Positions 5,920-64,000 are shown, counted from the first letter of the stretch. The stretch is 64,000 nucleotides of DNA from an uncultured Bacteroidales bacterium (GCA_963764345.1 CAVXSF010000033.1:7931-71930), one strand, 5' to 3'. Notes: generated from the sequence alone by a model not told the origin. Made by a program: numbers and translations.

Positions 5920-8353
5920 ATGAAAAAATACGTTATTCTCCTGATGTTGGCGGCACCATTTTTCTTCTGCCGTTGCACATCAAACTCCGGAAACCTCGAT
6001 GCCGGCTGGGATCATGCCGCGTGGATCGGTTATGAGCAGCTTCCCGACAGTATGAAGGTGGTGCCGGGCGTTCACGGGGATGGGAACGAACTGGGTGAAA
6101 AATGTCTGGAGCCGGCTGTTGTGCCTTTGTTCAGAAGGGATTTCAAAATTCAAGGGGATGTAAAGTCAGCCACCATAAGGATCTGCGGGCTGGGACATTA
6201 CGAACTGCACCTGAACGGCAGGAAAGTGGATGACCATTTCCTCTCGCCGGGATGGAGTCTTTACCAGAAAAAAAGTCTTTATAACACGGTTGATGTTACC
6301 GGCTATATTCAGAAAGGTGAAAATACTATCGGCGCCGTCGTAGGTACGGGCTTTTACTATATCAGTCGTGAACGGTACAGGAAACTGGTGGAAGCCTATG
6401 GTTATCCCAGGCTCATCTTTGACCTTGCCATCCGGTATGCCAATGGAAAGGAAGTCCATATCGTTTCTGACGGTCAGTGCCGGGTGAGCCCCTCCCCAAT
6501 TACTTTTAGCAGCATTTACGGCGGTGAGGATTATAATGCCACACTCGAACAGCCGGGATGGGACAACGCGGGATTTGACGATTCACACTGGAATGTCCCG
6601 GTTATCCTCCGCGATTCCACAGGGAAGCTCGTGCCTCAGAAAGACAACCCGCTCAAAGTGATGCAGATATTTGACATTAAGAAGATCTCCATCTCCAAAA
6701 CCGGGCGGACGGTTTATGATTTCGGGCAGAATGCCTCCGGGATCATTGCCTTGCAGGTCAAAGGGAACAAAGGGGCCCGTATCAGGATCACCCCGGGGGA
6801 ACTGACGGACAGCCTTGGGAATGTAACCCAGCGTAGCAGCGGAGGCCCTTATGAATTCAACTATACTCTGAAAGGCGACGGTGTGGAAGAATGGCAGCCC
6901 CGTTTCACCTATTACGGGTTCAGGTATGCGGATGTAGAGATTGATGAGCCGCAAAACGCCGGTACTAATACGGAAGTCCTCACCCTCAGGCTTCTTCATA
7001 CGCGTAATTCAGCTCCTTCAGCGGGTTCTTTCAGTTGCTCCGATACACTGTTTAACCAGTATCTTCGATCTGATCAACTGGGGCATAAAAAACAACCTGG
7101 CCAGCGTGGCCACCGACTGCCCGCATCGTGAAAAACTGGGCTGGCTCGAGCAGACCTACCTGATGGGACCTTCCATCCAGTATAATTTCGACATTCACAG
7201 TCTGTACAGCAAGATCATCGGCGACATGACGGACTCCCAGCTTGAAAACGGACTGGTGCCGGATATTGCCCCGGAATATGTGCCGTTCAAAGGCGGATTC
7301 AGGGATTCACCGGAATGGGGAAGTGCCGCCGTCATTATCCCCTGGCAGTTATACCGTTGGTACGGCGATAAAAAGATCCTGGAAAGCGCCTATCCCATGA
7401 TGGTAAAATATACGGCCTACCTTTACGGGAAGGCAACCGGCGATCTGCTCGATTATGGCCTGGGCGACTGGTATGACCTGGGGCCGAATCCTCCCGGTGA
7501 AGCCCAGCTTACCCCTAAAGGTGTTACCGCCACATCGATATTTTACTATGATCTTAAAATTATGGAGAAAGTCTCGGCCCTGCTTGGCTTTAACCAGGAT
7601 CAGACCGAATATGGAAAACTGTCGTCTGCCGTTCAGGATGCTTTCCTCAGAAAATACTATGACCCTGAAACCGGCGTTTGTTCCACCGGCAGTCAGACCG
7701 CTTATGCGATGCCGCTGTATGTGGGGCTGATCCCCGAAGATCACCGGGACCTGACATTCAGTAACCTGGCAGACTCCATTAAAAGCAACGGTTATGCCCT
7801 TACCTCCGGGGATATCGGCTACCATTTCCTGGTGGAGGTCCTAAGTGATCACGGAAGGTCGGATATTCTTTACCGGATGAATAACCGGACCGACCGGCCG
7901 GGTTACGGCTACCAGCTGAAGAAAGGAGCCACCGCACTCACGGAAAGCTGGGCAGCCCTTACAACTTCCTCGAACGACCACATGATGCTCGGACACCTAA
8001 TGCAATGGTTCTACAGCGGCCTGGGTGGCATTTCGCAGACGGAGCTTTCAGTGGCATACAATGATATTCTGATTGCCCCTAAACCGGTCGGCAACATTCA
8101 TTGGGTAAAATGTTCCTATCAGTCGGTTCACGGGATCATTTCAACGGACTGGAAGGTTGAAGGGGAAAATTTTTCGTTGGTGATAACGATTCCCGACAGC
8201 ACAACCTCCAGAGTTATACTTCCGGAAAACTATCGCAATGATCTGCACGTTTTCAACCTGACAACTGGTCAGGAGGGCCCTCCTCTTACCTCCAAAGGCA
8301 GTTTCAGTACCGGCCCCGGAACATTCAGGGTAGAGTCAAAACGGGGATCCTGA
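5920..8353 (+). CDS. GH78 alpha-L-rhamnosidase-like lipoprotein, apparent +1 frameshift at 7060
   Basis: ICGLGHYEL, YDFGQNASG, FTYYGFRY in the first frame; TDCPHREKLGWLEQ, GLGDWY, GATALTESW, SNDHMMLG in the second; an extra t in aaccagTatcttc. Confidence 0.88.
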
Positions 8354-53573: not shown

Positions 53574-54417
53574 ATGAGTCCAACAAACGGAAATGATTTG
53601 AGATACGAGCTTACCGTCTCATTCAGCATCAGTCTCGCTCTTTTTCTGTTCGCCCTTTTTTTCCGCCCCTTCAATGCCTCCCAATATTTCACGGATAATG
53701 CCATTCTGTTCATGGCCGGTTTCGGAGGTATCAACTTTCTGTTCATGTCCATATTTATCAGCTTTATGCCACGAATCATGACGGATTGGTATTGGACCAT
53801 TAACCGGGATCACAACCCCACCAATGCCACCCTGGCGCTTGTCTGGGTATTTGATACGGTGGCCTATGGTTTTTATATCCGTTACGTGGGCCAGGCTCCC
53901 GTCACAATGTTCCTTATGTTCAAGGTCGCTCTCCTGTGCCTGGGCGCCGTGGCAGTCTTAAAAGCTTTATATCTCAACGAGTCACTCAACCGCCAGATTT
54001 CACTTCTGAATGAAAAAATCATGAGGAACCAGGAAGTTATGGATCAGTTTGAGACCAATCACCGTAATGATGTCGTTGAAATTTATTCGGATAATCATTC
54101 GGAAAAAATATCAACAAGCATCCGGGACCTCATTTTAATTAGATCGGCAGATAATTACGTTGAAATCATTTACATGGATGAAGGCAGAGACAGTCAAAAA
54201 ACTTATTCGCAATACACTGAAAAATATGGAGTACCACCTGGCAAAATATCAGAAATTCATTCGCTGCCACCGGTCCTATATTATCAACCTTGACTTTGTG
54301 GATAAACTGCTGAAGAAGTACAATATTTACAGTATCAGGGTGAAAGATCTGGATGAAGAACTTCCGGTCTCAAGACAATATCTGCTCAGGCTGCGGGAAG
54401 CCCTGGAAAAGGATTGA
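53574..54417 (+). CDS. Membrane-anchored LytTR-family regulator, apparent frameshift in A6 run at 54196-54201
   Basis: About 4 TM helices, then IRSADNYVEI; the alternate frame gives LIRNTLKNME...FIRCHRSYIINL...LPVSRQY. Confidence 0.8.
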
Positions 54418-54551: not shown

Positions 54552-56030
54552 ATGAACGTTCTGCTTGTCAATCCCAAATATCCTGATACTTTCTGGAGTT
54601 TTACCCATGCTCTCCGTTTCATTTCAAAGCGGGCTGCACATCCTCCACTGGGGCTGCTTACTGTGGCAGCTCTACTGCCATCTGAATGGACACGGAAAGT
54701 TGTCGATATGAATGTCAGCCGTTTAAATGACGAGGAAATACTGGAAGCCGATTTCGTATTCATCAGTGCCATGTCGGTGCAACAATCCTCGGCCATCGAA
54801 GTTATTCAGAGATGCCGGTCATTGAAAACAAAAATCGTAGCCGGCGGACCACTTTTCACAGAGGAGTTTGAAAATTTTGACATGGTCGATCACCTTATTC
54901 TGAATGAAGCAGAGATCACCCTGCCCTTGTTCATCCATGATCTGGAACAGGGTGAAGCCAGGAAAATATATCGGACCAGTGAATATGCCGATATCAGGCT
55001 TACACCCCCTCCCGATTATTCCCTGATCCCATTGTCGAAATATGTTTCACTCAGCATCCAGTATTCCCGAGGTTGTCCTTTTGACTGTGAATTTTGCGAT
55101 ATTACCGCCCTTTTTGGACACCGGGTCAGGACAAAAACAAGCGATCAGATCATCAGTGAACTCGAAAATCTATACCTCAGTGGCTGGCGAAGCGGGATAT
55201 TTTTTGTGGATGATAATTTTATCGGGAACAAATCAAAACTAAAGCATGATTTACTCCCCGCCATTTCCCGATGGATGAAGGCTCATAAGTATCCCTTTAC
55301 CTTCACAACGGAAGCATCAATCAATCTTTCCGACGATAAAGAACTCATGACGCAGATGGTCAGTGCCGGTTTCTCAAAAGTATTTGTGGGAATAGAAACC
55401 CCCGACATTGCCTGTCTGACCGAATGCAATAAAGTTCAGAATTACAAAACGGATCTCCTGCAAAGTGTCAGAAAAATACAGTCGATGGGATTGGAAGTCT
55501 TCGGAGGTTTTATCGTCGGTTTCGATAATGATACCGAATCCGTATTTAAAAAGCAGATCGATTTTATTCAGAAGAGTGGAATTGTTACTGCCATGGTCGG
55601 ACTTCTGAATGCCCCGAAAAAAACCAGGCTTTATGAAAGGATGGAACAGGAAGGCCGGATCACAGGAGATTTTGAGGGAGACAACACCAATTTCTCCATG
55701 AATTTCCGGCCTAAGATGGATATGGGCAAATTACTGGAGGGTTATCATCAGATACTGGAAGGGATCTATTCCGGTAAAGCCTATTATACCCGGATTAAAA
55801 CATACCTGAAAAACTTCAAACCCTCTCCCGGACACAAGAGAAAACTCACGATGAACAACCTTCTTGCCTTTGTAAAATCACTTTACCTCATCGGCCTGAT
55901 GGATAAGACCAGGAGATATTACTGGCAACTTTTATTCTGGAGTTTGTTCAGAAAACCCTCGGCCTTTGCTTATGCCATAACGTACAGTATCCAGGGGTAT
56001 CATTACCGCAAAATATACCTGGTTGACTGA
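54552..56030 (+). CDS. B12-binding radical SAM protein (DUF4070-type)
   Basis: PPLGLLTVAA, SRGCPFDCEFC CxxxCxxC, VDDNF, GFIVGFDND. Confidence 0.9.
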   Translation: MNVLLVNPKYPDTFWSFTHALRFISKRAAHPPLGLLTVAALLPSEWTRKVVDMNVSRLNDEEILEADFVFISAMSVQQSSAIEVIQRCRSLKTKIVAGGPLFTEEFENFDMVDHLILNEAEITLPLFIHDLEQGEARKIYRTSEYADIRLTPPPDYSLIPLSKYVSLSIQYSRGCPFDCEFCDITALFGHRVRTKTSDQIISELENLYLSGWRSGIFFVDDNFIGNKSKLKHDLLPAISRWMKAHKYPFTFTTEASINLSDDKELMTQMVSAGFSKVFVGIETPDIACLTECNKVQNYKTDLLQSVRKIQSMGLEVFGGFIVGFDNDTESVFKKQIDFIQKSGIVTAMVGLLNAPKKTRLYERMEQEGRITGDFEGDNTNFSMNFRPKMDMGKLLEGYHQILEGIYSGKAYYTRIKTYLKNFKPSPGHKRKLTMNNLLAFVKSLYLIGLMDKTRRYYWQLLFWSLFRKPSAFAYAITYSIQGYHYRKIYLVD

Positions 56031-56032
56031 TC

Positions 56033-57436
56033 TTAGCTCCAGTCGCGGTCCCATGAATCCCGTTCGTTCCATTCATCTGTCGGGGCAAACAATTTCTCTC
56101 CCTTTCTCAGATGTTCTTTTGCAACGTCCTCATTGAGATCGACACCCACGCCGGGTTTGTCGGGCACCGTAACATAGCCGTTCTTCACAAAAGGTTTATC
56201 GATGCCCGTCACCAGGTCTTCCCACCACGGATTATCGACCGAATGATGTTCGAGAGCTATGAAATTTTCTGTTGCGGCCGCCGTATGCACTGCGCCGAGC
56301 CAGGTTATGGGCGATGATGCATGATGCAGGGCCATGGCAATGCCGTGTTCCTGTGCATAATCACCGATCCTTTTCGTTTCCAGGTATCCTCCTGCCGTCA
56401 GGGGATCGGGATGAACCATATCCACTGCCCTGTTCTCGATCAGGTCTTTAAAACCTTCCTTCAAATAGATATCTTCACCGGTAAGAGTTGGTACGTCGAC
56501 CGATTCTGAAATTTCCTTCCACATATCCGTATACTGCCAGGGCACGAGGTCCTCGAGCCAGGCTACATTATAAGGTTCATAAGCTTTAGCCAGCCGTATC
56601 ATGCTGTTTACGCCCATGTGCCCGATGTGGTCGATGGCTACCGGGATTTCCCATCCTATGGTATCGCGGACAAGGGCAAGGTACTTCACAAGTTCGGCTG
56701 TCCCTTTATCGGTAATCTGAACCCGGGTGAAAGGGTGCCTGGTTAAACCATAGGTACCGGGAGTCTGGCTCCATCCCTGCAAATCGCCCCAGGGTTCGGT
56801 ATTGTTTAACGTTCCGGGGATATCTTTAATCAGACCGATACCCACATCCATTTTCATGAAAGTAAATCCCATATTGAGGCGGCCTCTCATTTTTTCGGCA
56901 AAAAGTTCCGGATCCTTTTCCGTGGGTGTATCCACATAAACCCTGACTTTATCGCGGTATTTCCCTCCCAGCAGCTGGTAAAGAGGCACATTGTAGGCTT
57001 TGCCCGTAAGATCCCAGAGGGCTGTCTCAACGCCGGAGACACCTCCGCCCTGCCTGCCATGATTCCCAAATTGTTTAATGATCCTGAAAATCTTTTCAAC
57101 ATTGCAGGGGTTTTCACCAAGGATCCGGCTTTTCAGCATCAGGGCGTAACGTTTGTCGGCGCCGTCACGCACGTCGCCGAGGCCGTATAAGCCCTGGTTG
57201 GTATAGATCTTCACGATCGGGACACGGCCTACCTCGGCAATCCGCATATCTGTAATCTTCAGGTCTGAAGGCCCCGAATACCTGTTTACATTCTGGGTGG
57301 CATATTCGAGCTGAGCTTCCAGCGGAGACGACATCATCATACCGCCAAGGCTGAGACCGGAAAGACCGGCCAGTTTCATGAATGACCTCCGGTCGAACCC
57401 GGATTTCCGGTTTTTTTTGTTATCTGAATCTGACAT
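56033..57436 (-). CDS. Mandelate racemase/enolase-superfamily acid-sugar dehydratase with Tat signal
   Basis: DRRSFMK twin-arginine; SGVETALWDL, KMD, metal ligands AIDH / LED / GED. Confidence 0.85.
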   Translation of the reverse strand: MSDSDNKKNRKSGFDRRSFMKLAGLSGLSLGGMMMSSPLEAQLEYATQNVNRYSGPSDLKITDMRIAEVGRVPIVKIYTNQGLYGLGDVRDGADKRYALMLKSRILGENPCNVEKIFRIIKQFGNHGRQGGGVSGVETALWDLTGKAYNVPLYQLLGGKYRDKVRVYVDTPTEKDPELFAEKMRGRLNMGFTFMKMDVGIGLIKDIPGTLNNTEPWGDLQGWSQTPGTYGLTRHPFTRVQITDKGTAELVKYLALVRDTIGWEIPVAIDHIGHMGVNSMIRLAKAYEPYNVAWLEDLVPWQYTDMWKEISESVDVPTLTGEDIYLKEGFKDLIENRAVDMVHPDPLTAGGYLETKRIGDYAQEHGIAMALHHASSPITWLGAVHTAAATENFIALEHHSVDNPWWEDLVTGIDKPFVKNGYVTVPDKPGVGVDLNEDVAKEHLRKGEKLFAPTDEWNERDSWDRDWS

Positions 57437-57652
57437 GGCTGTGTCTGATTTTAAAGGTTAGAACGTTTGAATTCAAGAGTACATTTATAAAAGCTTAAAA
57501 AGAATATTAAAATTTTCTTTTAAAGTTAAAGAATCAGAATTAAATTCGGGACTATCTGTGAACGAAATATTCCTACTCAAAGAATCCGGAACAGGGTGAA
57601 GAACTGGAAATGTGGAATGAAAGTCCGGAGATCGTTAAACAAGACTACTGAC

Positions 57653-58990
57653 ATGAACAGAAAGAAACTGTACCGGACACTGTTATGGATCTCTGTTTTT
57701 TTAGCCCTTAGCACCGTCCTTACCCTTATTTTCCATCTCCCTGCTTTCACCGGACCGTTGTTGATCCTGTTTTTCGTCACGCTGGCCTTCAGCGTACGCG
57801 GCAATGAATTTCTGAAGGGATTCTCCTACACGATCATGATCTTTGCCGCGGTGACCATCGCCATGTTTTACCCGGGACTGTTCACCCGCTGGGGGCATTT
57901 CGAGCTGAAGATCCTGATCGTCCCCCTTCTTCAGATCATCATGTTCGGCATGGGATCTCAGATGAGTTTCAAGGATTTTGCAGCGGTAGTCAGGATGCCT
58001 AAGGGCGTTATCCTGGGCCTGGCATGCCAGTTCACCATTATGCCCTTCGTGGGTTATATCATCGCCACTACCTTTGGTTTCCCTCCCGAAATTGCAGCCG
58101 GCATCATCCTGATCGGGTCATCGCCCAGCGGACTGGCTTCCAATGTGATGTCATTCATTGCCAAAGCCAACCTTGCCCTTTCCGTAACTCTCACAGCCTT
58201 TGCCACCATGCTGGCACCTCTCATCACTCCCACCCTGATGAAGTTCCTGGCCGGACAGTTTGTTCCGGTGGATTTCTGGAGTATGATGCTGGGCATCATT
58301 AACATTGTTATCCTGCCCATTATTGCCGGACTGATTTTCAATGCTATCGCCTACGGAAAGGAAAAAAGCAAAAGCATTATCGTACAGATGTCCGTATATT
58401 TTCTGATCATTTTGCTGAAGAATTATATTCTCTATTCTACCAGCGATATCGGGATGAAAGCAACGGAATACCAGTTTGTTAAGGATCTTTTCTGGTTTCT
58501 TCTGCTCCCGGCAGCAGGCTCATGGCTGTTCAAATCCGTTGCAGCGGGAAGACACGCATTTCTTGACCGCCTCCTTGCCTTTTTCTCCATGGCCGGTATC
58601 GGGGTGATCATCACCATCATTACGGCGGCAGGGCGCGACAGCCTCCTGGAGATCGGACTGCTGCTCCTTTTCGCCAGTCTTATTCACAATATTTCAGGCT
58701 ATTTTCTTGGCTACTGGATCTGCCGCTTTGCCCGTATGGATGAGAATTCCTGCCGGACCATCGCACTTGAAGTGGGCATGCAGAACGGGGGGCTGGCGTC
58801 GGGCATTGCCCTGCAAATGGGCAAAGTAGCTACCATCGGGCTGGCACCGGCGGTCTTCGGCCCGCTGATGAACATCACCGGCTCATCACTGGCTACATGG
58901 TGGAGAGGTAAGCCCGTTGTTGAAAAAGAAACAATAATGAATGACACACAAGAAATAGAAAGAAAACATCATAAACCTTCATCATCATGA
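57653..58990 (+). CDS. Bile acid:sodium symporter (BASS) family transporter
   Basis: IMFGMGSQM, CQFTIMP, SPSGLASNV, RTIALEVGMQNGGLA. Confidence 0.88.
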   Translation: MNRKKLYRTLLWISVFLALSTVLTLIFHLPAFTGPLLILFFVTLAFSVRGNEFLKGFSYTIMIFAAVTIAMFYPGLFTRWGHFELKILIVPLLQIIMFGMGSQMSFKDFAAVVRMPKGVILGLACQFTIMPFVGYIIATTFGFPPEIAAGIILIGSSPSGLASNVMSFIAKANLALSVTLTAFATMLAPLITPTLMKFLAGQFVPVDFWSMMLGIINIVILPIIAGLIFNAIAYGKEKSKSIIVQMSVYFLIILLKNYILYSTSDIGMKATEYQFVKDLFWFLLLPAAGSWLFKSVAAGRHAFLDRLLAFFSMAGIGVIITIITAAGRDSLLEIGLLLLFASLIHNISGYFLGYWICRFARMDENSCRTIALEVGMQNGGLASGIALQMGKVATIGLAPAVFGPLMNITGSSLATWWRGKPVVEKETIMNDTQEIERKHHKPSSS

Positions 58991-59913
58991 AAAAAACCGC
59001 ACTAATCCTTTTGGCTCTGGCGAGTCTTCCGCTCACCCAACTCTTTTCCCAGTTTTTTGACACAAAAAATGAACTCACCTACTATACACAGGAATGGAAA
59101 GGAGAGCGCTTTCCTGACGGCCGGCCAAAAGTGCCGGACAATATCCTCGAACGCATGAAGAATGTTTCCCTTGAAGAAGCCTGGGGTATCCTCCGGTCGA
59201 AAGGGTATTCCAATCAGTTTGCCGGAGACTGGACGATCCTTCATGATGACCAGGTGATGGTTGGCCGTGCGCTTACAGCCTCCTACCTGCCCAAGAGGCC
59301 GGAACTTTCCGACAGGCTCACCGAAAAAGGTCATGAGGAAGGGCGTATCGGGGCTATGAACTCCTGGCCGATCGATGCCTTGCAAAAAGGAGATGTTTAC
59401 GTTGCCAACTGTTTCGGCAAAGTCAAAGACGGCACCCTCATTGGGGATAACCTGGGAAATGCCATCTATGCCAATTCGGGCAATGGTGTAGTGTTTGATG
59501 CCGGCGCGCGTGATATGGAAGGTCTTGCAGAAATCGAAGGATTCAACGCATGGGTCAGAGGCTGGGATCCCTCCTACCTCCAGGAAACCATGCTTATGGG
59601 TATCAATATCCCGATACGTATCGGCGAAGCCACCGTTTTTCCGGGAGATGTGGTACTGGCAAAGAAAGAGGGCGTACTGTTCATCCCTGCCCATCTTGCA
59701 GAAGAGGTGGTGATCCGTTCCGAATTCATCATGCTGAAGGATAAGTTCGGACACCAGATGCTTCGTGAGGGTAAATACACACCCGGCCAGATCGACGGAC
59801 GCTGGAGCGATGAGATCAAGGACGCTTTCCTGAAATGGATCGATAAACACCCGGAGGAGCTGCCGATGAGCAGGGAAGAGCTGGATGATTTTTTGAAGGA
59901 TAGGACGTGGTAG
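58987..59913 (+). CDS. RraA/HMG-aldolase-like protein with signal peptide
   Basis: Sec signal peptide; DGRPKVPD, GDNLG..GVVFDAGARD, IGEATVFPGDVVLA; ATGA overlap with the BASS gene. Confidence 0.8.
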   Translation: MKKTALILLALASLPLTQLFSQFFDTKNELTYYTQEWKGERFPDGRPKVPDNILERMKNVSLEEAWGILRSKGYSNQFAGDWTILHDDQVMVGRALTASYLPKRPELSDRLTEKGHEEGRIGAMNSWPIDALQKGDVYVANCFGKVKDGTLIGDNLGNAIYANSGNGVVFDAGARDMEGLAEIEGFNAWVRGWDPSYLQETMLMGINIPIRIGEATVFPGDVVLAKKEGVLFIPAHLAEEVVIRSEFIMLKDKFGHQMLREGKYTPGQIDGRWSDEIKDAFLKWIDKHPEELPMSREELDDFLKDRTW

Positions 59914-60140
59914 GGAGTTAGGGAGTTATGGAGTTAGGGAGTGAGGGATTTAGGGATTTAGGGATTTAGGGATTTAGGGATTTAGGGATTTAGGGATTTA
60001 GGGATTTAGGGATTTAGGGATTTAGGGATTTAGGGAGTTAGGGAGTTAGGGAGTTAGGGAGTTGAGTTGTTGAGTGTGAGTTGAGTTGTTGAGTTGTTTA
60101 GTTGTTTAGTTGTTTAGTTGTTTAGTTGTTTAGTTGTTGA
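59911..60140 (+). repeat. Composite octamer array: 19 units TAGGGAGT/TAGGGATT, then TGAGTTGT/TTAGTTGT units
   Basis: Read directly; begins at the TAG stop; 10 perfect TAGGGATT units at 59951-60030. Confidence 0.95.
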
Positions 60141-60154
60141 ATTCCTCCCCTAAT

Positions 60155-60236
60155 AATCTGTGTAATCTGTGCAATCTGTGGTGATACCCCCTCTGAATTA
60201 AACTCTCCCCCATTCAATCTGTGCAATCTGTGGTGA
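60155..60236 (+). repeat. AATCTGTG motif cluster (5 copies; two groups ending AATCTGTGGTGA)
   Basis: Read directly; the same terminal motif occurs at 42052-42063. Confidence 0.75.
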
Positions 60237-60669
60237 AAAATATGAAAAGGCAAAGTGTCTCAAGTACTCCCGGAATTAAGTCTTCCCAAATGCCGGAGGA
60301 AGCTAACCGAAGGCTTACACTTAAAGTATTATATGTTTCTAATGAAACTCCAGAGTTCTTCATCCGGGGAGGATCAGTTCACCCTACGGGTAAAAACAAC
60401 ACCTGACTTTACCCGTTAATCAAATAAAATGCTTATTTTCAATTATTTATTGAACTAAGAACAGGTGTGTGCTACTGCCCGTGCAGCACACACAGGCGGC
60501 ACATTATATGTCTGGCCTTTTGCGGTTAATATAAATAAGTTCTAAATTAGCCTACACAATGAATGATTGTCTGCAGATTTTAAGGTCGTTACAGCCCGTA
60601 CCGCTGAACCGTGAAATAGCAATATACACAAACACAAAATGCCAAAACCATAAATAAGGAGAAACGAAA

Positions 60670-61086
60670 ATGAAAAAAACAACATTGATTTTAGCAGTAA
60701 TCACTTTAAGCATTGCAATGTTTTCTTGTGGAAATAACACAAACAACAAATCTACCACTGAAAAGAAATCCGATACTAAAGAAATTACCATGGATGATTT
60801 AGCAGGCGAATGGGAGTGTACAGATATTACAAATGGATTAAGCCATATGGAGAATATTGCCAAAATGCAACCACATATTATATTTAATAATGAAAATGAA
60901 ATTCTCTCAAAAATGAAGTTACCCGATGGCAGTTTTGTTTCTCAGAAAGTTGGTTCATTTAGCATTGAAGGGGGAAAAATCGTATCCAAACTTTATGAAA
61001 AAAGCCCTTATATGGAAAATAATAAATTAATAATAGATAATCCCTCAGAAGATAATAAACTGATTTATGATAAAATAAATAAGTAA
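60670..61086 (+). CDS. Hypothetical lipoprotein (lipocalin-like size)
   Basis: Lipobox MFSC, LAGEWEC; AT-rich; purine-rich RBS-like sequence upstream. Confidence 0.75.
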   Translation: MKKTTLILAVITLSIAMFSCGNNTNNKSTTEKKSDTKEITMDDLAGEWECTDITNGLSHMENIAKMQPHIIFNNENEILSKMKLPDGSFVSQKVGSFSIEGGKIVSKLYEKSPYMENNKLIIDNPSEDNKLIYDKINK

Positions 61087-61099
61087 AGGAGACTATAAA

Positions 61100-62071
61100 A
61101 TGAAAAATGTAACATTAGTTTTAGCAGTAGCTTTATTAATAGTTTCAACAAATCTTTTTGCACAAAGGAAAACAGATATTGAAGGTAGTAAAGATTATCC
61201 TCTGGTGTCAAGATTTGAAGGTTCTGTTATCGAGTATTATAAAGATACAAAATGGGATACTTACAAATTACCCGTTTATGAAGATAACATAACACAACCA
61301 AATTATAAAAATCCTGTCACTTTAGAAGGAGAAGTTATCAGAACTCAATATTCTGTACCATCTGACAATAATCCTTCTTATGTTATGAAGAACTTCGAAA
61401 AAGCGTTTACTTCAAAGAATTACAAAATTCTTTTAGAAGGAAAACCCGGAGAAGGAATTGAAGAAGGACCGGCTGGTTTCAACGGAGATTTTTACGGTAG
61501 TCAGAAAGCTTTAAATCTTGACAAGTTCAGATATGCTTATGAACCAACCGGAGATGGCGATAAAGCAATAATTGTTGCAAAAACAAATAAAGATGGAAAG
61601 GCTATTTATATTGTAGAAGTAATAGGTGCTTTTTCTAATACAACATTAATAACTCAGGATGTAATAGAAGTTGAGGAAGCAGAAACAGGAAAGGTTACGG
61701 CTTTAGATATTAATAAAGACATAACATCAAACGGGCACATTGCTATTTACGATATTCACTTCGATACAGGGAAATCAACATTAAAAACAGAATCGGCAGA
61801 AGCATTAAAAAATATTGCAGAATTTTTAAACGGTCATCCTTCAAAGAAATTTTTAATTGTTGGGCATACTGATAATGTAGGAAATTTTGATGCTAACTTA
61901 AAACTATCAAAAGATAGAGCAGATGCTGTTTTGAATGAATTAGTGACAAATCATTCAGTAAAAGCTGAGCAATTACAAGCCTATGGAGACGGTTCTACAG
62001 CTCCTGTTGCGAGTAATTCAACTGAAACCGGAAAAGCAAAAAACAGAAGAGTTGAAATCGTAGAACTATAA
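61100..62071 (+). CDS. OmpA-family protein with N-terminal DUF4892-like domain
   Basis: GSKDYPLVSRFEGS; IHFDTGKS, GHTD..G..D.N.KLS.DRA, NRRVEIV. Confidence 0.88.
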   Translation: MKNVTLVLAVALLIVSTNLFAQRKTDIEGSKDYPLVSRFEGSVIEYYKDTKWDTYKLPVYEDNITQPNYKNPVTLEGEVIRTQYSVPSDNNPSYVMKNFEKAFTSKNYKILLEGKPGEGIEEGPAGFNGDFYGSQKALNLDKFRYAYEPTGDGDKAIIVAKTNKDGKAIYIVEVIGAFSNTTLITQDVIEVEEAETGKVTALDINKDITSNGHIAIYDIHFDTGKSTLKTESAEALKNIAEFLNGHPSKKFLIVGHTDNVGNFDANLKLSKDRADAVLNELVTNHSVKAEQLQAYGDGSTAPVASNSTETGKAKNRRVEIVEL

Positions 62072-62091
62072 TATACTACTGCCGGTCGGGT

Positions 62092-62295
62092 AGGCGTCTG
62101 ATCCCGACTAAGCGGGACCGGTACGCCTCTCCCGCCACTTCCTCCCGAAAGTTTTCGGGAGGTCATGAATACAGCGCTTTCCCGATTGAATAACCGGGAC
62201 AGGCAATTCAATTGAAGGGGTACGGTTTTATCCATCTCCGAAAACCTAACCGTTTCATATAGTCAAAGGTCAGCCTCCCGCAGAGCGGGACAGGT
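62092..62295. repeat. Cluster of four REP-like TCCCG..CGGGA hairpins
   Basis: atcccgactaagcgggac, cctcccgaaagttttcgggagg, ttcccgattgaataaccgggac, cctcccgcagagcgggac. Confidence 0.7.
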
Positions 62296-62584
62296 CGTGC
62301 AAAAATTCCCCCTTCGTTGTTAATACCCTATTCTTTTACAAATTACCTGATCAGCAGCGATTTATTTTGAAATAGATCAAAATCCAAGGATTCCAAACGG
62401 GGAACGGACCGCAACCAGATGATGATGTTCTGCCTGGGAAGCTCCATTGCCCGGGATTCGTTTGTTCGTGTGGCTGATGCCTTCGCAGATGTTACCGGTC
62501 TAAAGGGTGCTGCCCGGAGCAGTACATTAAAACTGTTGCATATACCTTCCGATAGGGAGGGATATATTCAACTGTGCAGGAGTT

Positions 62585-62866
62585 TTGACAATATTATTTT
62601 ACCAAACCACCGGGAAGGAATATTCAGCAAGCTGCATACAGAATATAGTCCATGCTGCGGTAAAAGCTGCCGGGATAAAAAAGAAGACGTCACTTCATAC
62701 CCTTCGGCTCACGTATGCCGCACACAATCGGGGAAAGGGGGTAAATTTAAGGTACATTCAAGATATGATGAGACATTCAAGCAGCAAGACGACGGAGATA
62801 TACACCCCTATAACTCAAAAAGGCTTTAATCAAATAAAAAGTCCGATGGATGACTTGGATTTGTAA
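62585..62866 (+). pseudogene. Truncated tyrosine recombinase/integrase (C-terminal ~93 aa)
   Basis: HTLR box, LRYIQDMMRHSSSKTTEIY, terminal IKSPMDDLDL; N-terminal two-thirds absent; HSFATH and LGH motifs degenerate. Confidence 0.8.
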
Positions 62867-62941
62867 AATTATTGCTATATTTATTTAACTAAACTAAACT
62901 AAAGGGGCTGAACACATATGCAAAATAAATGCAACTGTTAC

Positions 62942-62999
62942 ATATACTCCTCAAATTTGAGGAGTATATACAATGGGTGTGTTTAGCCACTCGTTGGGC
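62942..62999 (+). mobile_element. attI-like region: perfect 28-bp palindrome + GTTGGGC core site
   Basis: ATATACTCCTCAAA/TTTGAGGAGTATAT (62942-62969); GTTRRRY at 62993-62999. Confidence 0.5.
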
Positions 63000-63185
63000 G
63001 GTAATTACAAAGAGAAAACCGACACTTGGATTAAATAAAAAAAACCACGTCTTACCTATGCGAACGAAGACTATTAAGCTTTAATCGTATCTGGTGTAAC
63101 ATAGATAGTTAACGGTAATCGAAAACCTTTGAATTATAAAGCAATATGTCATGAATTCCTAAGTTAAATCTGGATTGAAACTTGA

Positions 63186-63326
63186 GAGAGGGTGTGGATA
63201 CAAATATACCGTGATTTAAACTTCGATAAATTAAATACAGATGGGCAGGAATGGGATACTGGAATCAAAGTAGACGTCATTCTGGAGATCAAAAATGGAT
63301 TGATTCATTGGAAAGCTATTAGGTAA
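63186..63326 (+). pseudogene. Decayed cassette ORF remnant
   Basis: Start-less frame ERVWIQIYRDLNFDKLNTDGQEWDTGIKVDVILEIKNGLIHWKAIR*, preceded by an in-frame stop and ending 45 bp before the attC-like site. Confidence 0.4.
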
Positions 63327-63371
63327 TTCGCAAGGCACCAATATGTACAAGGAGTTCGAATAATGAAAACG

Positions 63372-63508
63372 TTGCCGCCAACATCCGGTAAATTTCATTG
63401 CCAGGTTCGTTCCTTTATTTTGTAAATTCGTTATTACGATGAATTAATAATATTAACGAAGGCTAACGCCAGCTGGCAACGAAACTTACCGGTAACGCGT
63501 TGGGTTGC
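63372..63508 (+). mobile_element. attC-like recombination site
   Basis: TTGCCGCCAAC inverse core; arms 63384-63404 and 63473-63493 are 18/21 complementary; GTTGGGT core at 63499-63505; ~135 bp. Confidence 0.62.
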
Positions 63509-63547
63509 AATTGTACCGACAAGCCAGCACGATTAAAAGTGAGTTAA

Positions 63548-64000
63548 ATGAGTGAAAAATTTCTTCAAAAGTTTAGTTTTTATGATTATGAAAATGTTTC
63601 TATTGATTATAGTATAAAAACTAAATTGTTAGATTTGAACACTTTAGTTGATTATATAAAGATTAATCCGACTCGAGGATATAGTAAAGCTGAAAAATAT
63701 ATTGGAAAGCATCTTAATCCTTCAACAAAGAAAATTGAAACATCTGAGAGGCAACGGCCATGGACATTGTGGGTTTATAGCACAAATGGAATGGTGACGA
63801 GTAAGAGATTTGATGACCATGCAGAACACTTGATTCTAAAGGTGCAAAATGCAAAAGGACAAATAAAGGAATTTATTAATCAGCCTGACAGGTTTGAGAT
63901 AATGATACAGATTTACTTATCGGTTTATAAAAAAGAGAATTATTTTGGATTTGGGATTAAGTCTGATTTATTTGGCAAATTGATTGAGATTACGAATTTT
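63548..64000 (+). CDS. DUF4279-like hypothetical protein (runs off window end), cassette-like
   Basis: Open frame of 151 codons from ATG 63548 (MSEKFLQKF...IKINPTRGYSKAEK...RPWTLWVYST...); very AT-rich; starts 43 bp after the core site. Confidence 0.65.
   Translation, partial: MSEKFLQKFSFYDYENVSIDYSIKTKLLDLNTLVDYIKINPTRGYSKAEKYIGKHLNPSTKKIETSERQRPWTLWVYSTNGMVTSKRFDDHAEHLILKVQNAKGQIKEFINQPDRFEIMIQIYLSVYKKENYFGFGIKSDLFGKLIEITNF

Follow-up and report, generated by a model that had tools for sequence, protein, structure and literature searches.

The non-phosphorylative oxidative sugar pathways (L-rhamnose LRA1-6, the L-fucose FucD route, RhmD/RhmA/RhmT of E. coli, De Ley-Doudoroff and Dahms) follow the same order of steps, with a sugar dehydrogenase, a lactonase, an enolase-superfamily dehydratase and a C-C cleavage that gives pyruvate, together with a dedicated transporter. 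To our knowledge, all those described are cytoplasmic, and their cleavage enzymes are of the HpcH/HpaI, DHDPS/NAL or FAH families, not RraA-like. Periplasmic oxidation of sugars has precedents in the PQQ glucose dehydrogenase of Pseudomonas/Gluconobacter and in the Tat-exported glucose-fructose oxidoreductase of Zymomonas, the latter being a case in which an oxidoreductase fold that is usually cytoplasmic passes through Tat with its cofactor bound. Known periplasmic oxidation goes no further than the aldonate or ketoaldonate, the form that is taken into the cell, and we know of no description of extracytoplasmic dehydration and C-C cleavage.

The D-glucosaminate DgaE/DgaF system of Salmonella and the EF_0837/selA_rel cluster (TIGR01437, TIGR03583, NF006689) combine a PRK09237 amidohydrolase and a DgaE-family PLP ammonia-lyase with a subsequent cleavage-type enzyme; DgaE/DgaF is cytoplasmic, with a PTS-phosphorylated substrate and a KDPG-type aldolase. 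The BASS family includes carriers of 2-oxo/keto-acids (PanS, and the pyruvate:Na+ symporter BASS2 of plants). The HMG/CHA aldolase (LigK/PcmE type; P. putida F1, 3NOJ) has the RraA-like fold, and is a cytoplasmic class II enzyme of aromatic degradation that splits a 4-hydroxy-2-oxo acid to yield pyruvate. FlDet of Flavobacterium sp. UMI-01, also of the RraA family, is a 2-keto-3-deoxy-D-glucarate dehydratase/decarboxylase that is activated by divalent metal, acts on a 2-keto-3-deoxy sugar acid and rejects KDG (PMC8563752).

The three-gene locus

The window analysed here is a 64,000-nucleotide stretch of DNA from an uncultured Bacteroidales bacterium. A preliminary description had noted in it a Tat-signal (RRSFMK) enolase-superfamily gene divergent from a BASS gene, which overlaps an RraA-like gene carrying a signal peptide and an RD motif. 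All three genes were found in the place that it gave, at 56033-59913. The features are as follows.

56033..57436, minus strand: ENO ('ENO1' type), enolase-superfamily acid-sugar-dehydratase-like enzyme, 467 aa, predicted to be Tat-exported; Pfam MR_MLE_N and MR_MLE_C
57314..57436, minus strand: first 41 residues of ENO, a predicted Tat signal peptide with an RRSFMK motif, a hydrophobic region rich in Gly/Ser, and cleavage between LEA and Q
57437..57652, no strand: ENO-BASS divergent intergenic region, AT-rich, with presumed promoters
57653..58990, plus strand: BASS-family (SBF) sodium-coupled symporter, 445 aa from a conserved ATG; Pfam SBF
58987..59913, plus strand: RRAA, long-form RraA-like protein (class II aldolase/decarboxylase fold), 308 aa, predicted to be Sec-exported
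58987..59052, plus strand: first ~22 residues of RRAA, a predicted Sec-type signal peptide with MKK, a hydrophobic core, and cleavage between LFS and Q

As read from the sequence, the spacer between the divergent ENO and BASS genes is about 216 bp, and a promoter scan of it gave sites no more numerous than in shuffled sequence. The BASS reading frame (57596-58990, plus strand) opens at a GTG at 57596, and its start was placed from orthologues, which begin at the ATG at 57653 (MNRKKLYR). The BASS stop and RRAA start share 4 nt (ATGA), the overlap that had been reported, and by this arrangement BASS appears to be translationally coupled to RRAA. Flanking the trio in the window are a repeat array and genes for an RND pump and a radical-SAM protein; none of its neighbors there encodes an oxidase, a lactonase or a glycosidase, which speaks against the reading favored below.

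On balance, and with moderate confidence, we favor the view that the three genes encode a single conserved module for extracytoplasmic catabolism of a sugar acid, with C-C cleavage by RRAA and import by BASS. ENO would be folded in the cytoplasm and then exported by Tat, and RRAA would be exported by Sec. In the periplasm, ENO would dehydrate a sugar acid to a 2-oxo-3-deoxy acid, needing Mg2+ and no diffusible cofactor; its substrate is probably an aldonate from periplasmic sugar oxidation, and for the window's lineage one candidate is a 6-deoxy-hexonate, for instance L-rhamnonate. RRAA, a putative divalent-metal enzyme of the RraA/HMG-aldolase fold, would cleave a C-C bond of the ENO product to give pyruvate and a small aldehyde or acid, and BASS would import the oxo-acid product with Na+. 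We infer the periplasmic location, the substrate, the RRAA reaction and the BASS cargo from the comparisons described below.

Gene neighborhoods in other genomes

Four genera of the window's own family share the trio in synteny, and the same gene set recurs in hundreds of bacterial species. Among 400 evenly drawn Bacteroidota genomes, ENO1-type genes are present in 12 and RRAA in 22, and all 12 fall within the 22, bearing out the expectation that the genes co-occur across Bacteroidota. RRAA adjoins ENO or BASS in 19 of these 22 genomes (ENO1 in 10, BASS in 16), and has BASS but not ENO1 as a neighbor in nine, which indicates that ENO is not obligatory. The same tendency holds for 80 loci from other species, where RRAA adjoins an ENO-type gene and/or BASS in 69 (ENO1 in 47, BASS in 51, both in 29), and a paralogous RRAA2-ENO2 pair repeats the design. 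By these counts the arrangement appears to be far beyond chance, and functional coupling of ENO, BASS and RRAA is well supported by comparative evidence.

In 19 loci an exported PRK09237 amidohydrolase (deacetylase; 444 bits, above cut-off) stands in for ENO, and the two layouts do not overlap. This second layout retains RRAA in 19/19 and BASS in 16/19, and includes a Tat DgaE-like ammonia-lyase and a Tat RidA in 12/19 and a GSDH-cytochrome c in 10/19. It resembles the DgaE/DgaF system in its amidohydrolase, ammonia-lyase and subsequent cleavage-type enzyme, but every enzyme carries a signal peptide (of the Tat type for the DgaE-like protein and RidA), no phosphorylation is possible, and RRAA occupies the aldolase position. 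Since it would converge on the same step, it suggests that RRAA acts on a 2-oxo-3-deoxy acid. The amidohydrolase/DgaE layout was not found in the window's genome.

Cytoplasmic orthologues of ENO and RRAA in Firmicutes sit with two SDR dehydrogenases, a lactonase and sugar ABC transporters, which, as judged from gene content, is exactly the layout of the oxidative non-phosphorylative sugar pathways. The window's module differs from those pathways in that its dehydratase and cleavage enzyme have export signals and its transporter is a BASS protein. In some Firmicutes the cytoplasmic RraA-like gene lies beside KdgK-like and Eda-like genes; a second aldolase looks redundant there, a point against the favored view. 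Genes for Tat Gfo/Idh/MocA proteins adjoin the module in 13/80 loci, and the window's genome holds orthologues of these and of the GSDH-cytochrome c, both of which are reminiscent of known periplasmic sugar oxidation. Of the four sequenced loci closest to the window within its RRAA clade, three (L030, L031, L033) carry a GH78 rhamnosidase gene beside ENO1. In Chitinophagaceae, FGGY gluconokinase-like and AraC genes adjoin the module.

Active sites and candidate reactions of ENO and RRAA

ENO matches both MR_MLE domains (MR_MLE_C, 154 bits, cut-off 29.4, E 5.7e-45; MR_MLE_N, 43.9 bits, cut-off 22), as do the mandelate racemase-type acid-sugar dehydratases of the enolase superfamily. Its top NCBIfam match is galactonate dehydratase (GalD), at 182 bits and under the cut-off of 311, while it scores 154 bits against the ManD model (cut-off 550), 98 against talarate/galactarate dehydratase and 27 against glucarate dehydratase. 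The closest solved structure is 2qq6 (E 2e-60). Residues D269/E295/E321 and D344-H371 are invariant in 41 ENO1 and 11 ENO2 proteins and align with their 2qq6 counterparts, and K195 is likewise invariant. By analogy with GalD and MR, we take the first three, where barrel strands 3-5 end, to bind Mg2+, and the pair to be the His-Asp general-base dyad; with ligands and dyad kept, the catalytic residues of ENO appear to be intact. ENO1 proteins have a D-H-x-G-H motif (D269-H270-x-G-H273) in place of the canonical D-x-H-G-R, which ENO2 and 2qq6 retain, and a hydrophobic residue where the canonical general-acid His would sit, so that the reaction may differ from those of GalD or ManD. Assignment of ENO as a D-galactonate dehydratase (DgoD) or ManD member was rejected, since the D-x-H motif is missing and the scores fall below the equivalog cut-offs.

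RRAA matches the Pfam RraA-like family (64 bits, cut-off 24.5), and Foldseek comparison of its AF2 model (pLDDT 92.6) returned 3k4i, 5x15, 3noj (E 9e-13) and 2c5q, with TM (target) of 0.75–0.91 for the first three. The RD motif is R175-D176, a pair that is invariant in 83 homologues, aligns with R123-D124 of the HMG/CHA aldolase 3NOJ, and in this fold binds the 2-oxo acid and metal; RRAA thus has both the fold and the catalytic Arg-Asp pair of the RraA-like/HMG-CHA aldolase proteins. Its reaction is less easily read. RRAA lies below the cut-offs of every NCBIfam model, the best-scoring being NF006093/PRK08245 (108 bits, cut-off 208), against which RRAA2 scores 94, a cytoplasmic orthologue 89 and FlDet 341 bits. 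The HMG/CHA aldolase equivalogs NF006731 (64.8 bits, cut-off 179) and TIGR02798 (63 bits, cut-off 304.5) are further examples. The nearest characterized relative is FlDet (31% identity over 209 aa, E 2e-19), while the match to the HMG/CHA aldolase is weaker (E 7.8e-10), with an identity of only ~18–25% that is confined to the core. The HMG-type retro-aldol chemistry put forward in the preliminary description is therefore not established for RRAA, as its closest characterized relative is a dehydratase/decarboxylase and not the HMG/CHA aldolase.

An unlikely but credible alternative is that the same exported module performs FlDet-type chemistry, in which ENO would dehydrate an aldarate (glucarate/galactarate type), RRAA would dehydrate and decarboxylate the resulting 2-keto-3-deoxy-aldarate to alpha-ketoglutarate semialdehyde, and BASS would import this for cytoplasmic oxidation to 2-oxoglutarate. 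The relationship to FlDet, which shares the RraA fold and Arg-Asp pair and is a true member of the family whose model is also the top one for RRAA, speaks for it, and the product, itself a 2-oxo acid, would suit a BASS carrier. FlDet also took only KDGR and not KDG (PMC8563752). However, RRAA scores far short of that model's cut-off and has extensions at both ends, a WKGERFxDGRP N-terminal segment and C-terminal helices, that are absent from FlDet, a cytoplasmic protein of 237 aa (native N-terminus Met-Thr-Thr...). An aldehyde dehydrogenase gene occurs in 0/80 neighborhoods, whereas fldet adjoins the alpha-KGSA dehydrogenase gene (fldeg) and not an enolase-superfamily or BASS gene. The ENO scores are nearer to aldonate dehydratases (GalD, ManD) than to either aldarate dehydratase, and the amidohydrolase/DgaE layout would need an amino-aldarate substrate.

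We think it improbable that the exported module includes an extra oxidation, whereby the Tat Gfo/Idh/MocA protein would oxidize the 2-keto-3-deoxy acid at C4 and RRAA would be a 2,4-diketo-3-deoxy-acid hydrolase, taking the role of LRA6 or the FAH-family hydrolase in the L-rhamnose and L-fucose diketo routes, to give pyruvate and lactate. It would accord with the two SDRs beside ENO1 and the RraA-like gene in Firmicutes clusters, where there is no FAH hydrolase, with the Gfo/Idh/MocA neighbors and the linked GH78 rhamnosidase, and with the match of RRAA to the RraA-like part of NF009399, a model of FAH proteins fused to an RraA-like domain. Against this, Gfo/Idh/MocA is not adjacent to the trio in the window, its orthologue being on another contig, and a periplasmic oxidoreductase with bound NAD(P) would need an electron acceptor, of which none was identified. 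We also know of no description of an RraA-fold diketo-acid hydrolase.

BASS and the predicted export of the two enzymes

BASS matches Pfam SBF (127 bits, cut-off 24.3) and aligns with ASBT_NM (3zuy, E 5e-49), conserving Q-F-x-x-M-P, A-S-N-V-M, L-S-V-x-x-T and E-V-G-M-Q-N, of which the ASNVM and EVGMQN stretches are identical. These stretches are presumably the Na1/Na2 sites of the ASBT_NM structure, and the SBF domain together with these residues marks BASS as an SBF (SLC10-like) Na+ symporter. Its scores are below the subfamily cut-offs (TIGR00841, 212.5 bits, cut-off 326.3; PanS NF047939, 196 bits, cut-off 400), and it differs from ASBT_NM, PanS and plant BASS2 in having two further hydrophobic segments at its N-terminus and, at residues 237-304, an insertion of 68 residues. 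BASS substrates are not readable from sequence, and the linkage could be real even if BASS served a cytoplasmic route by importing the sugar-acid substrate or some unrelated anion, while the exported enzymes detoxify or scavenge, say, an envelope-derived acid. The gluconokinase-like and AraC neighbors in Chitinophagaceae suggest that cytoplasmic phosphorylation of some sugar acid takes place as well. Such a role is doubtful, given the apparent translational coupling of BASS to RRAA and the presence of BASS with RRAA in both the ENO-type and the amidohydrolase-type layouts, which fits a common cargo that would be the RRAA product.

The N-terminus of ENO reads MSDSDNKKNRKSGFD-RRSFMK-LAGLSGLSLGGMMM-SSPLEA, followed by Q at the predicted cleavage site. 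A Tat signal was expected to show a motif of the S/T-R-R-x-F-L-K type, a region of moderate hydrophobicity and a site resembling A-x-A, with Tat machinery present; ENO has D-RRSFMK, then LAGLSGLSLGGMMM, then LEA before Q, and the window's genome encodes TatC (234 bits). For Sec (signal peptidase I) export, a positive n-region, a hydrophobic core, small residues at -3/-1 and no lipobox were looked for, as a heuristic judgement, and RRAA (MKKTALILLALASLPLTQLFS, followed by QFF) combines MKK, TALILLALASLPL and TQLFS before the Q. The 52/52 full-length ENO homologues have an RR motif with a hydrophobic stretch after it, and a hydrophobic leader, most often ending in A-Q, precedes the conserved W-x-G-E-R-x-x-D-G-R-P motif in 82/86 RRAA homologues, across Bacteroidota, Verrucomicrobiota, Planctomycetota and Rhodothermota. 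The cytoplasmic Firmicutes orthologues (MR_MLE protein 48–51% identical, with the DHFGH motif shared; RraA-like protein 45–47% identical) begin at about residue 42 of ENO and residue 23 of RRAA, just past the predicted cleavage sites, and the signals appear to be precise add-ons to otherwise cytoplasmic enzymes. No internal Met is conserved, and the canonical 'MKITD' start of the cytoplasmic homologues reads 'LKITD' here. Neighboring genes elsewhere also encode exported proteins related to carbohydrates or sugar acids (SusC/D, GH78, lactonase, GSDH-cytochrome c, Tat Gfo/Idh/MocA). Export of ENO and RRAA is well supported by these comparisons, and their location would be the periplasm. That the N-terminal extensions fail to direct export, or that internal starts are used and the enzymes are cytoplasmic, is very improbable in view of leaders kept across four phyla, the lack of a conserved internal Met, the exported neighbors, and the existence of true cytoplasmic orthologues that merely lack the leader.

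Comparative sequence analysis supports the family assignments, the add-on signal peptides, the linkage across phyla and the presence of intact catalytic residues. Cytoplasmic location, internal starts or a failure of the genes to co-occur would each have spoken against the preliminary reading of a periplasmic pathway, and none was seen at the sequence level. That reading stands in its export signals, backed by TatC, its co-occurrence and its novelty, and not in its retro-aldol step. The observation of an enolase-superfamily enzyme with a Tat signal, an RraA-like enzyme with a Sec signal and a BASS protein is confirmed. Our literature search likewise found no description of an exported ENO-RRAA-BASS arrangement. 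Where known periplasmic oxidation ends with import of the aldonate or ketoaldonate, the module proposed here would go further, and the gene set points to an undescribed extracytoplasmic stretch of sugar-acid breakdown.

Gene arrangement and co-occurrence

The genes for an enolase-superfamily enzyme (ENO), an SBF-family Na+ symporter (BASS) and a long-form RraA-like enzyme (RRAA) were found where the preliminary description had placed them, and their family assignments were confirmed:

56033-57436, minus strand: ENO, 467 aa, Pfam MR_MLE_N and MR_MLE_C
57653 (ATG, start of the orthologues; open frame from GTG 57596): BASS, SBF-family transporter (Pfam)
58987-59913: RRAA, 308 aa, RraA-like (Pfam)

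ENO and BASS are divergent and separated by an AT-rich spacer of about 216 bp, and the RRAA start codon overlaps the BASS stop codon (ATGA). A promoter and terminator scan of the locus returned sites at a level not above that of shuffled sequence. At 59911-60240, directly 3' of the RRAA stop, about 19 copies of an 8-nt unit (GGGAGTTA / GGGATTTA) form an array, after which come GTTGTTTA-type units and, in two copies, AATCTGTG(C/G)... The region from 60000 to 64000 is AT-rich (GC 0.34-0.39 versus about 0.47 elsewhere) and may be a mobile-element remnant; by eye, it carries a lipoprotein gene, an OmpA-like gene and a short integrase-like fragment (62585-62866). On the other flank, a B12-binding radical-SAM gene with a DUF4070 domain (54552-56030) converges on ENO and ends 2 nt from its stop; this gene adjoins ENO in a locus of the same genus (L027), and not in other genera. 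Two overlapping ORFs (53574-54293 and 54160-54417) resemble, by eye, a membrane-anchored LytTR-type regulator, the split of which may reflect a frameshift or a sequencing error. The 50 kb upstream of the trio holds a sulfatase/GH127/GH78 SusC/D region, T9SS cargo, an RND pump and the B12 radical-SAM gene, and these were rejected as parts of the module since none is conserved beside the trio in other genera.

The closest named relative is a same-genus MAG ('uncultured Bacteroidales bacterium'). The layout of the trio is identical in four genera of the family, and RRAA is directly beside ENO in two more. Besides Bacteroidota, the module is carried by Verrucomicrobiota, Planctomycetota and Rhodothermota. 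ENO1 and RRAA are both present in the cultured Eudoraea adriatica DSM 19308, Chitinophaga agrisoli and Fibrella rubiginis. The RRAA family is very large, with more than 8000 database clusters at E < 1e-10, and a relative is encoded in at least 578 species genomes. Among the 80 best RRAA loci, over which neighborhood counts were taken, genes of the ENO type (ENO1) occur in 47, BASS in 51 and both in 29; seven of the 80 lack ENO1, BASS and the amidohydrolase described below, and four of these seven are contigs of less than 4 kb. In many cases a paralogous pair comes after the first one: RRAA2 (about 50% identical; a separate clade with support 100/100) and ENO2 (about 33%, likewise with a Tat signal).

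For an unbiased count, 400 high-quality Bacteroidota genomes were sampled evenly. Of these, 22 (from 17 of 179 genera) encode RRAA and 12 have ENO1-type genes, all 12 being nested within the RRAA-positive set. Within that set, RRAA lies no more than 2.5 kb from ENO1 in 10 genomes and from BASS in 16. It is near neither in three, one of which is a fragmented assembly with the two genes on separate contigs and ENO 657 bp from a contig end. No P value is given, as related genomes are not independent, but the pattern of gene content and adjacency is far from chance. The co-occurrence on which the preliminary description depended is borne out by this nesting and by adjacency in most cases.

Export signals and leaderless orthologues

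By textbook accounts, the dehydration of sugar acids and aldol-type cleavage take place in the cytoplasm. The N-terminus of ENO comprises a basic region, the motif D-RRSFMK and a hydrophobic Gly/Ser-rich stretch, with predicted cleavage between LEA and Q, and that of RRAA comprises MKK and a hydrophobic core, with predicted cleavage between LFS and Q. Both leaders are retained in same-family genomes despite sequence drift. Across the 80 loci, all from other species, 52/52 full-length ENO-type proteins have an RR motif with a hydrophobic segment behind it, and a hydrophobic leader precedes the conserved W-x-G-E-R-x-x-D-G-R-P in 82 of 86 RRAA-type proteins, the four leaderless exceptions looking like start-call errors. 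TatC is encoded in the window's genome. The objection, raised at the outset, that internal starts might be used fails on sequence grounds and such starts were rejected for both proteins: there is no conserved Met downstream of the leader in ENO or RRAA homologues, and the 'MKITD' at which cytoplasmic homologues usually start is 'LKITD' in ENO1, with Leu at the canonical Met position.

Leaderless orthologues of both enzymes were found in Firmicutes, namely in Cohnella luojiensis, Massilimaliae timonensis and a metagenome scaffold. With ENO, their MR_MLE proteins have in common 48-51% of residues and the unusual DHFGH motif; identity between their RraA-like proteins and RRAA is 45-47%. Alignments with the exported proteins begin at most a few residues away from the predicted cleavage sites, so that the leaders are precise additions to an older cytoplasmic enzyme pair. 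Of all the comparisons made, these orthologues provide the strongest argument that the signals of ENO and RRAA are real. Export of the two enzymes, as originally proposed, is well supported by the comparative evidence, as is functional coupling of the three genes. A leaderless long-form RraA-like gene also occurs in a second recurring context on Clostridia-type contigs (L109, L113 and L114), where its neighbors are LacI, an Eda-like aldolase, a PfkB kinase, an unannotated protein (about 435 aa), a hydantoinase-A-like protein of 710 aa and two small proteins. On L114 there is, in addition, a short paralogue of the RraA-like gene.

Protein families and neighborhood layouts

The best curated models for ENO are galactonate dehydratase, gluconate/galactonate dehydratase and ManD, all NCBIfam equivalog scores being below cut-off, so that none assigns a substrate. 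Its best solved relative, 2qq6 (E 2e-60), is itself uncharacterised. ENO retains the three metal ligands (D269, E295 and E321) as well as K195 and the D344-H371 dyad. In the ENO1 clade, D-H-x-G-H stands in place of the D-x-H-G-R of ENO2, 2qq6, GalD and ManD, and this altered motif marks the clade as a distinct, uncharacterised subgroup of the enolase superfamily.

RRAA has a confidently predicted RraA-like fold (pLDDT 92.6) with an extra helical C-terminus (residues 235-303), and its R175-D176, invariant in homologues, matches the catalytic pair of HMG/CHA aldolase. A 532 aa homologue (P0123, 60% identical) carries, behind its signal peptide, an N-terminal domain of about 240 residues that resembles, by eye, the DUF1080 / 3-keto-disaccharide-hydrolase type. 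BASS aligns with the transporter ASBT_NM in two halves (E 5e-49), the stretches that form the Na+ sites being identical, and has, in addition, two hydrophobic segments at its N-terminus and an insertion of 68 residues.

Gene-order maps revealed two layouts that have RRAA, and usually BASS, in common. The first, that of the window, includes SusC/SusD, an AraC regulator and a cytoplasmic FGGY gluconokinase-like kinase, together with RRAA, ENO1 and BASS, then RRAA2-ENO2 and a Tat Gfo/Idh/MocA oxidoreductase; some loci add a GH78 alpha-L-rhamnosidase, an exported PIG-L deacetylase or sulfatases. In L030, L031 and L033, which make up three of the four closest sequenced loci from the window's RRAA clade, GH78 lies immediately downstream of ENO1. 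The second layout (19 loci) lacks ENO and has instead an exported PRK09237 amidohydrolase/deacetylase (444 bits, above cut-off); ENO and this amidohydrolase were found together in none of the 80 loci. A DgaE-family PLP ammonia-lyase and RidA are present in 12 of the 19, with twin-arginine leaders on both in 12/12, and the layout also holds a RidA lipoprotein, a GSDH-type dehydrogenase-cytochrome c fusion in 10 loci and occasionally an SMP-30 lactonase. Its RRAA proteins fall into two separate clades, the substrates of which therefore probably differ in detail. Dyadobacter, Niastella soli and Flagellimonas pacifica are among the bacteria with this second layout.

No oxidase or lactonase adjoins the trio in the window. 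Elsewhere in the same genome are orthologues of the GSDH-cytochrome c (46% identity), of the module-linked Tat Gfo/Idh/MocA (64%, beside a Tat TIM-barrel protein and a GH78-like gene), of the linked GH78 (65%, with about ten GH78 paralogues) and of the PIG-L deacetylase (66%). The amidohydrolase/DgaE layout is absent from this genome and was used as comparative evidence only. Within the window, two ORFs that overlap (5920-7131 and 6941-8353) together represent a split GH78 alpha-L-rhamnosidase-like gene, and the ENO-linked GH78 query matches both pieces at 5920-8353 (tblastn). Another contig of the genome (C7:25006-28777) encodes a leaderless RraA-like protein (226 aa), an SDR, an EamA-type transporter and an MR_MLE protein (373 aa), a cytoplasmic counterpart of the exported module at 25-31% identity only.

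Reaction of RRAA and a candidate periplasmic pathway

A 2-oxo-3-deoxy acid results when a dehydratase acts on a hydroxy acid, and likewise when a deacetylase, an ammonia-lyase and RidA act on an acetamido acid. It is mainly because the two layouts converge on this product that RRAA is placed on a 2-oxo-3-deoxy acid. Around the cytoplasmic Firmicutes pair lie two SDR genes, genes for a lactonase and for sugar ABC transporters, and a UxuA-like gene, the classic arrangement of an oxidative, non-phosphorylative sugar pathway. The SDRs themselves are generic (140 bits against L-rhamnose 1-dehydrogenase Lra1, cut-off 400). 'Sugar acid' as the substrate class is supported by context, and we infer a retro-aldol reaction for RRAA and pyruvate import by BASS. 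RRAA and BASS occur together in both layouts, and in the window they are translationally coupled, so that the cargo of BASS would most simply be the common product of RRAA.

A non-aldolase reaction of RRAA is also in play. FlDet of Flavobacterium sp. UMI-01, a cytoplasmic RraA-family enzyme of 237 aa, converts 2-keto-3-deoxy-D-glucarate to alpha-ketoglutarate semialdehyde and does not accept KDG (PMC8563752). RRAA is 31% identical to FlDet (E 2e-19), which makes FlDet its closest characterised relative, nearer than any aldolase; FlDet is a full member of NF006093, whereas RRAA scores below the cut-off. Against such a reaction, no aldehyde dehydrogenase gene that could encode an alpha-KGSA dehydrogenase was found in the 80 neighborhoods, and ENO is nearer to aldonate than to aldarate dehydratases. 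As a third option, RRAA may hydrolyse a 2,4-diketo-3-deoxy acid formed by Gfo/Idh/MocA oxidation, as the pair of SDRs in the Firmicutes clusters suggests; this route would release pyruvate as well.

We tentatively propose, at rather below even odds, that Bacteroidota, PVC bacteria and Rhodothermota possess a complete periplasmic oxidative pathway for sugars (or amino sugars) that needs no ATP and no free NAD. Uptake by SusC/D and glycosidase action would be followed by oxidation, by GSDH-cytochrome c or by Gfo/Idh/MocA enzymes with bound cofactor, with electrons passing to the respiratory chain. The lactone would then be hydrolysed, and the acid either dehydrated by the Tat-exported enolase-superfamily enzyme or deacetylated and deaminated by the PLP-dependent enzyme, before the exported RraA-like enzyme cleaves a C-C bond. 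Only pyruvate-size products would cross the inner membrane, via the Na+-coupled BASS, and the pathway would have arisen by the addition of signal peptides to a pre-existing cytoplasmic enzyme pair. A full-text literature search found no report of an exported enolase-superfamily or RraA-like enzyme, the sole paper bearing on function being that on FlDet (PMC8563752), and the earlier statement that no such pathway is described holds for the literature that could be searched.

The Firmicutes and exported orthologues form a natural experiment in pathway relocation by signal-peptide addition, and the former are easy proteins for assays. A periplasmic location of these reactions would change the picture of carbon entry in abundant glycan degraders of soil, marine and sediment habitats, explain SusC/D loci without cytoplasmic downstream genes, and alter genome-based metabolic models of these phyla. 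Two groups of enzymes would also gain their first physiological function, namely a large, so far uncharacterised subfamily of RraA-like proteins and the enolase-superfamily clade whose active-site motif is altered, and for a BASS transporter a 2-oxo acid would become a likely bacterial cargo.
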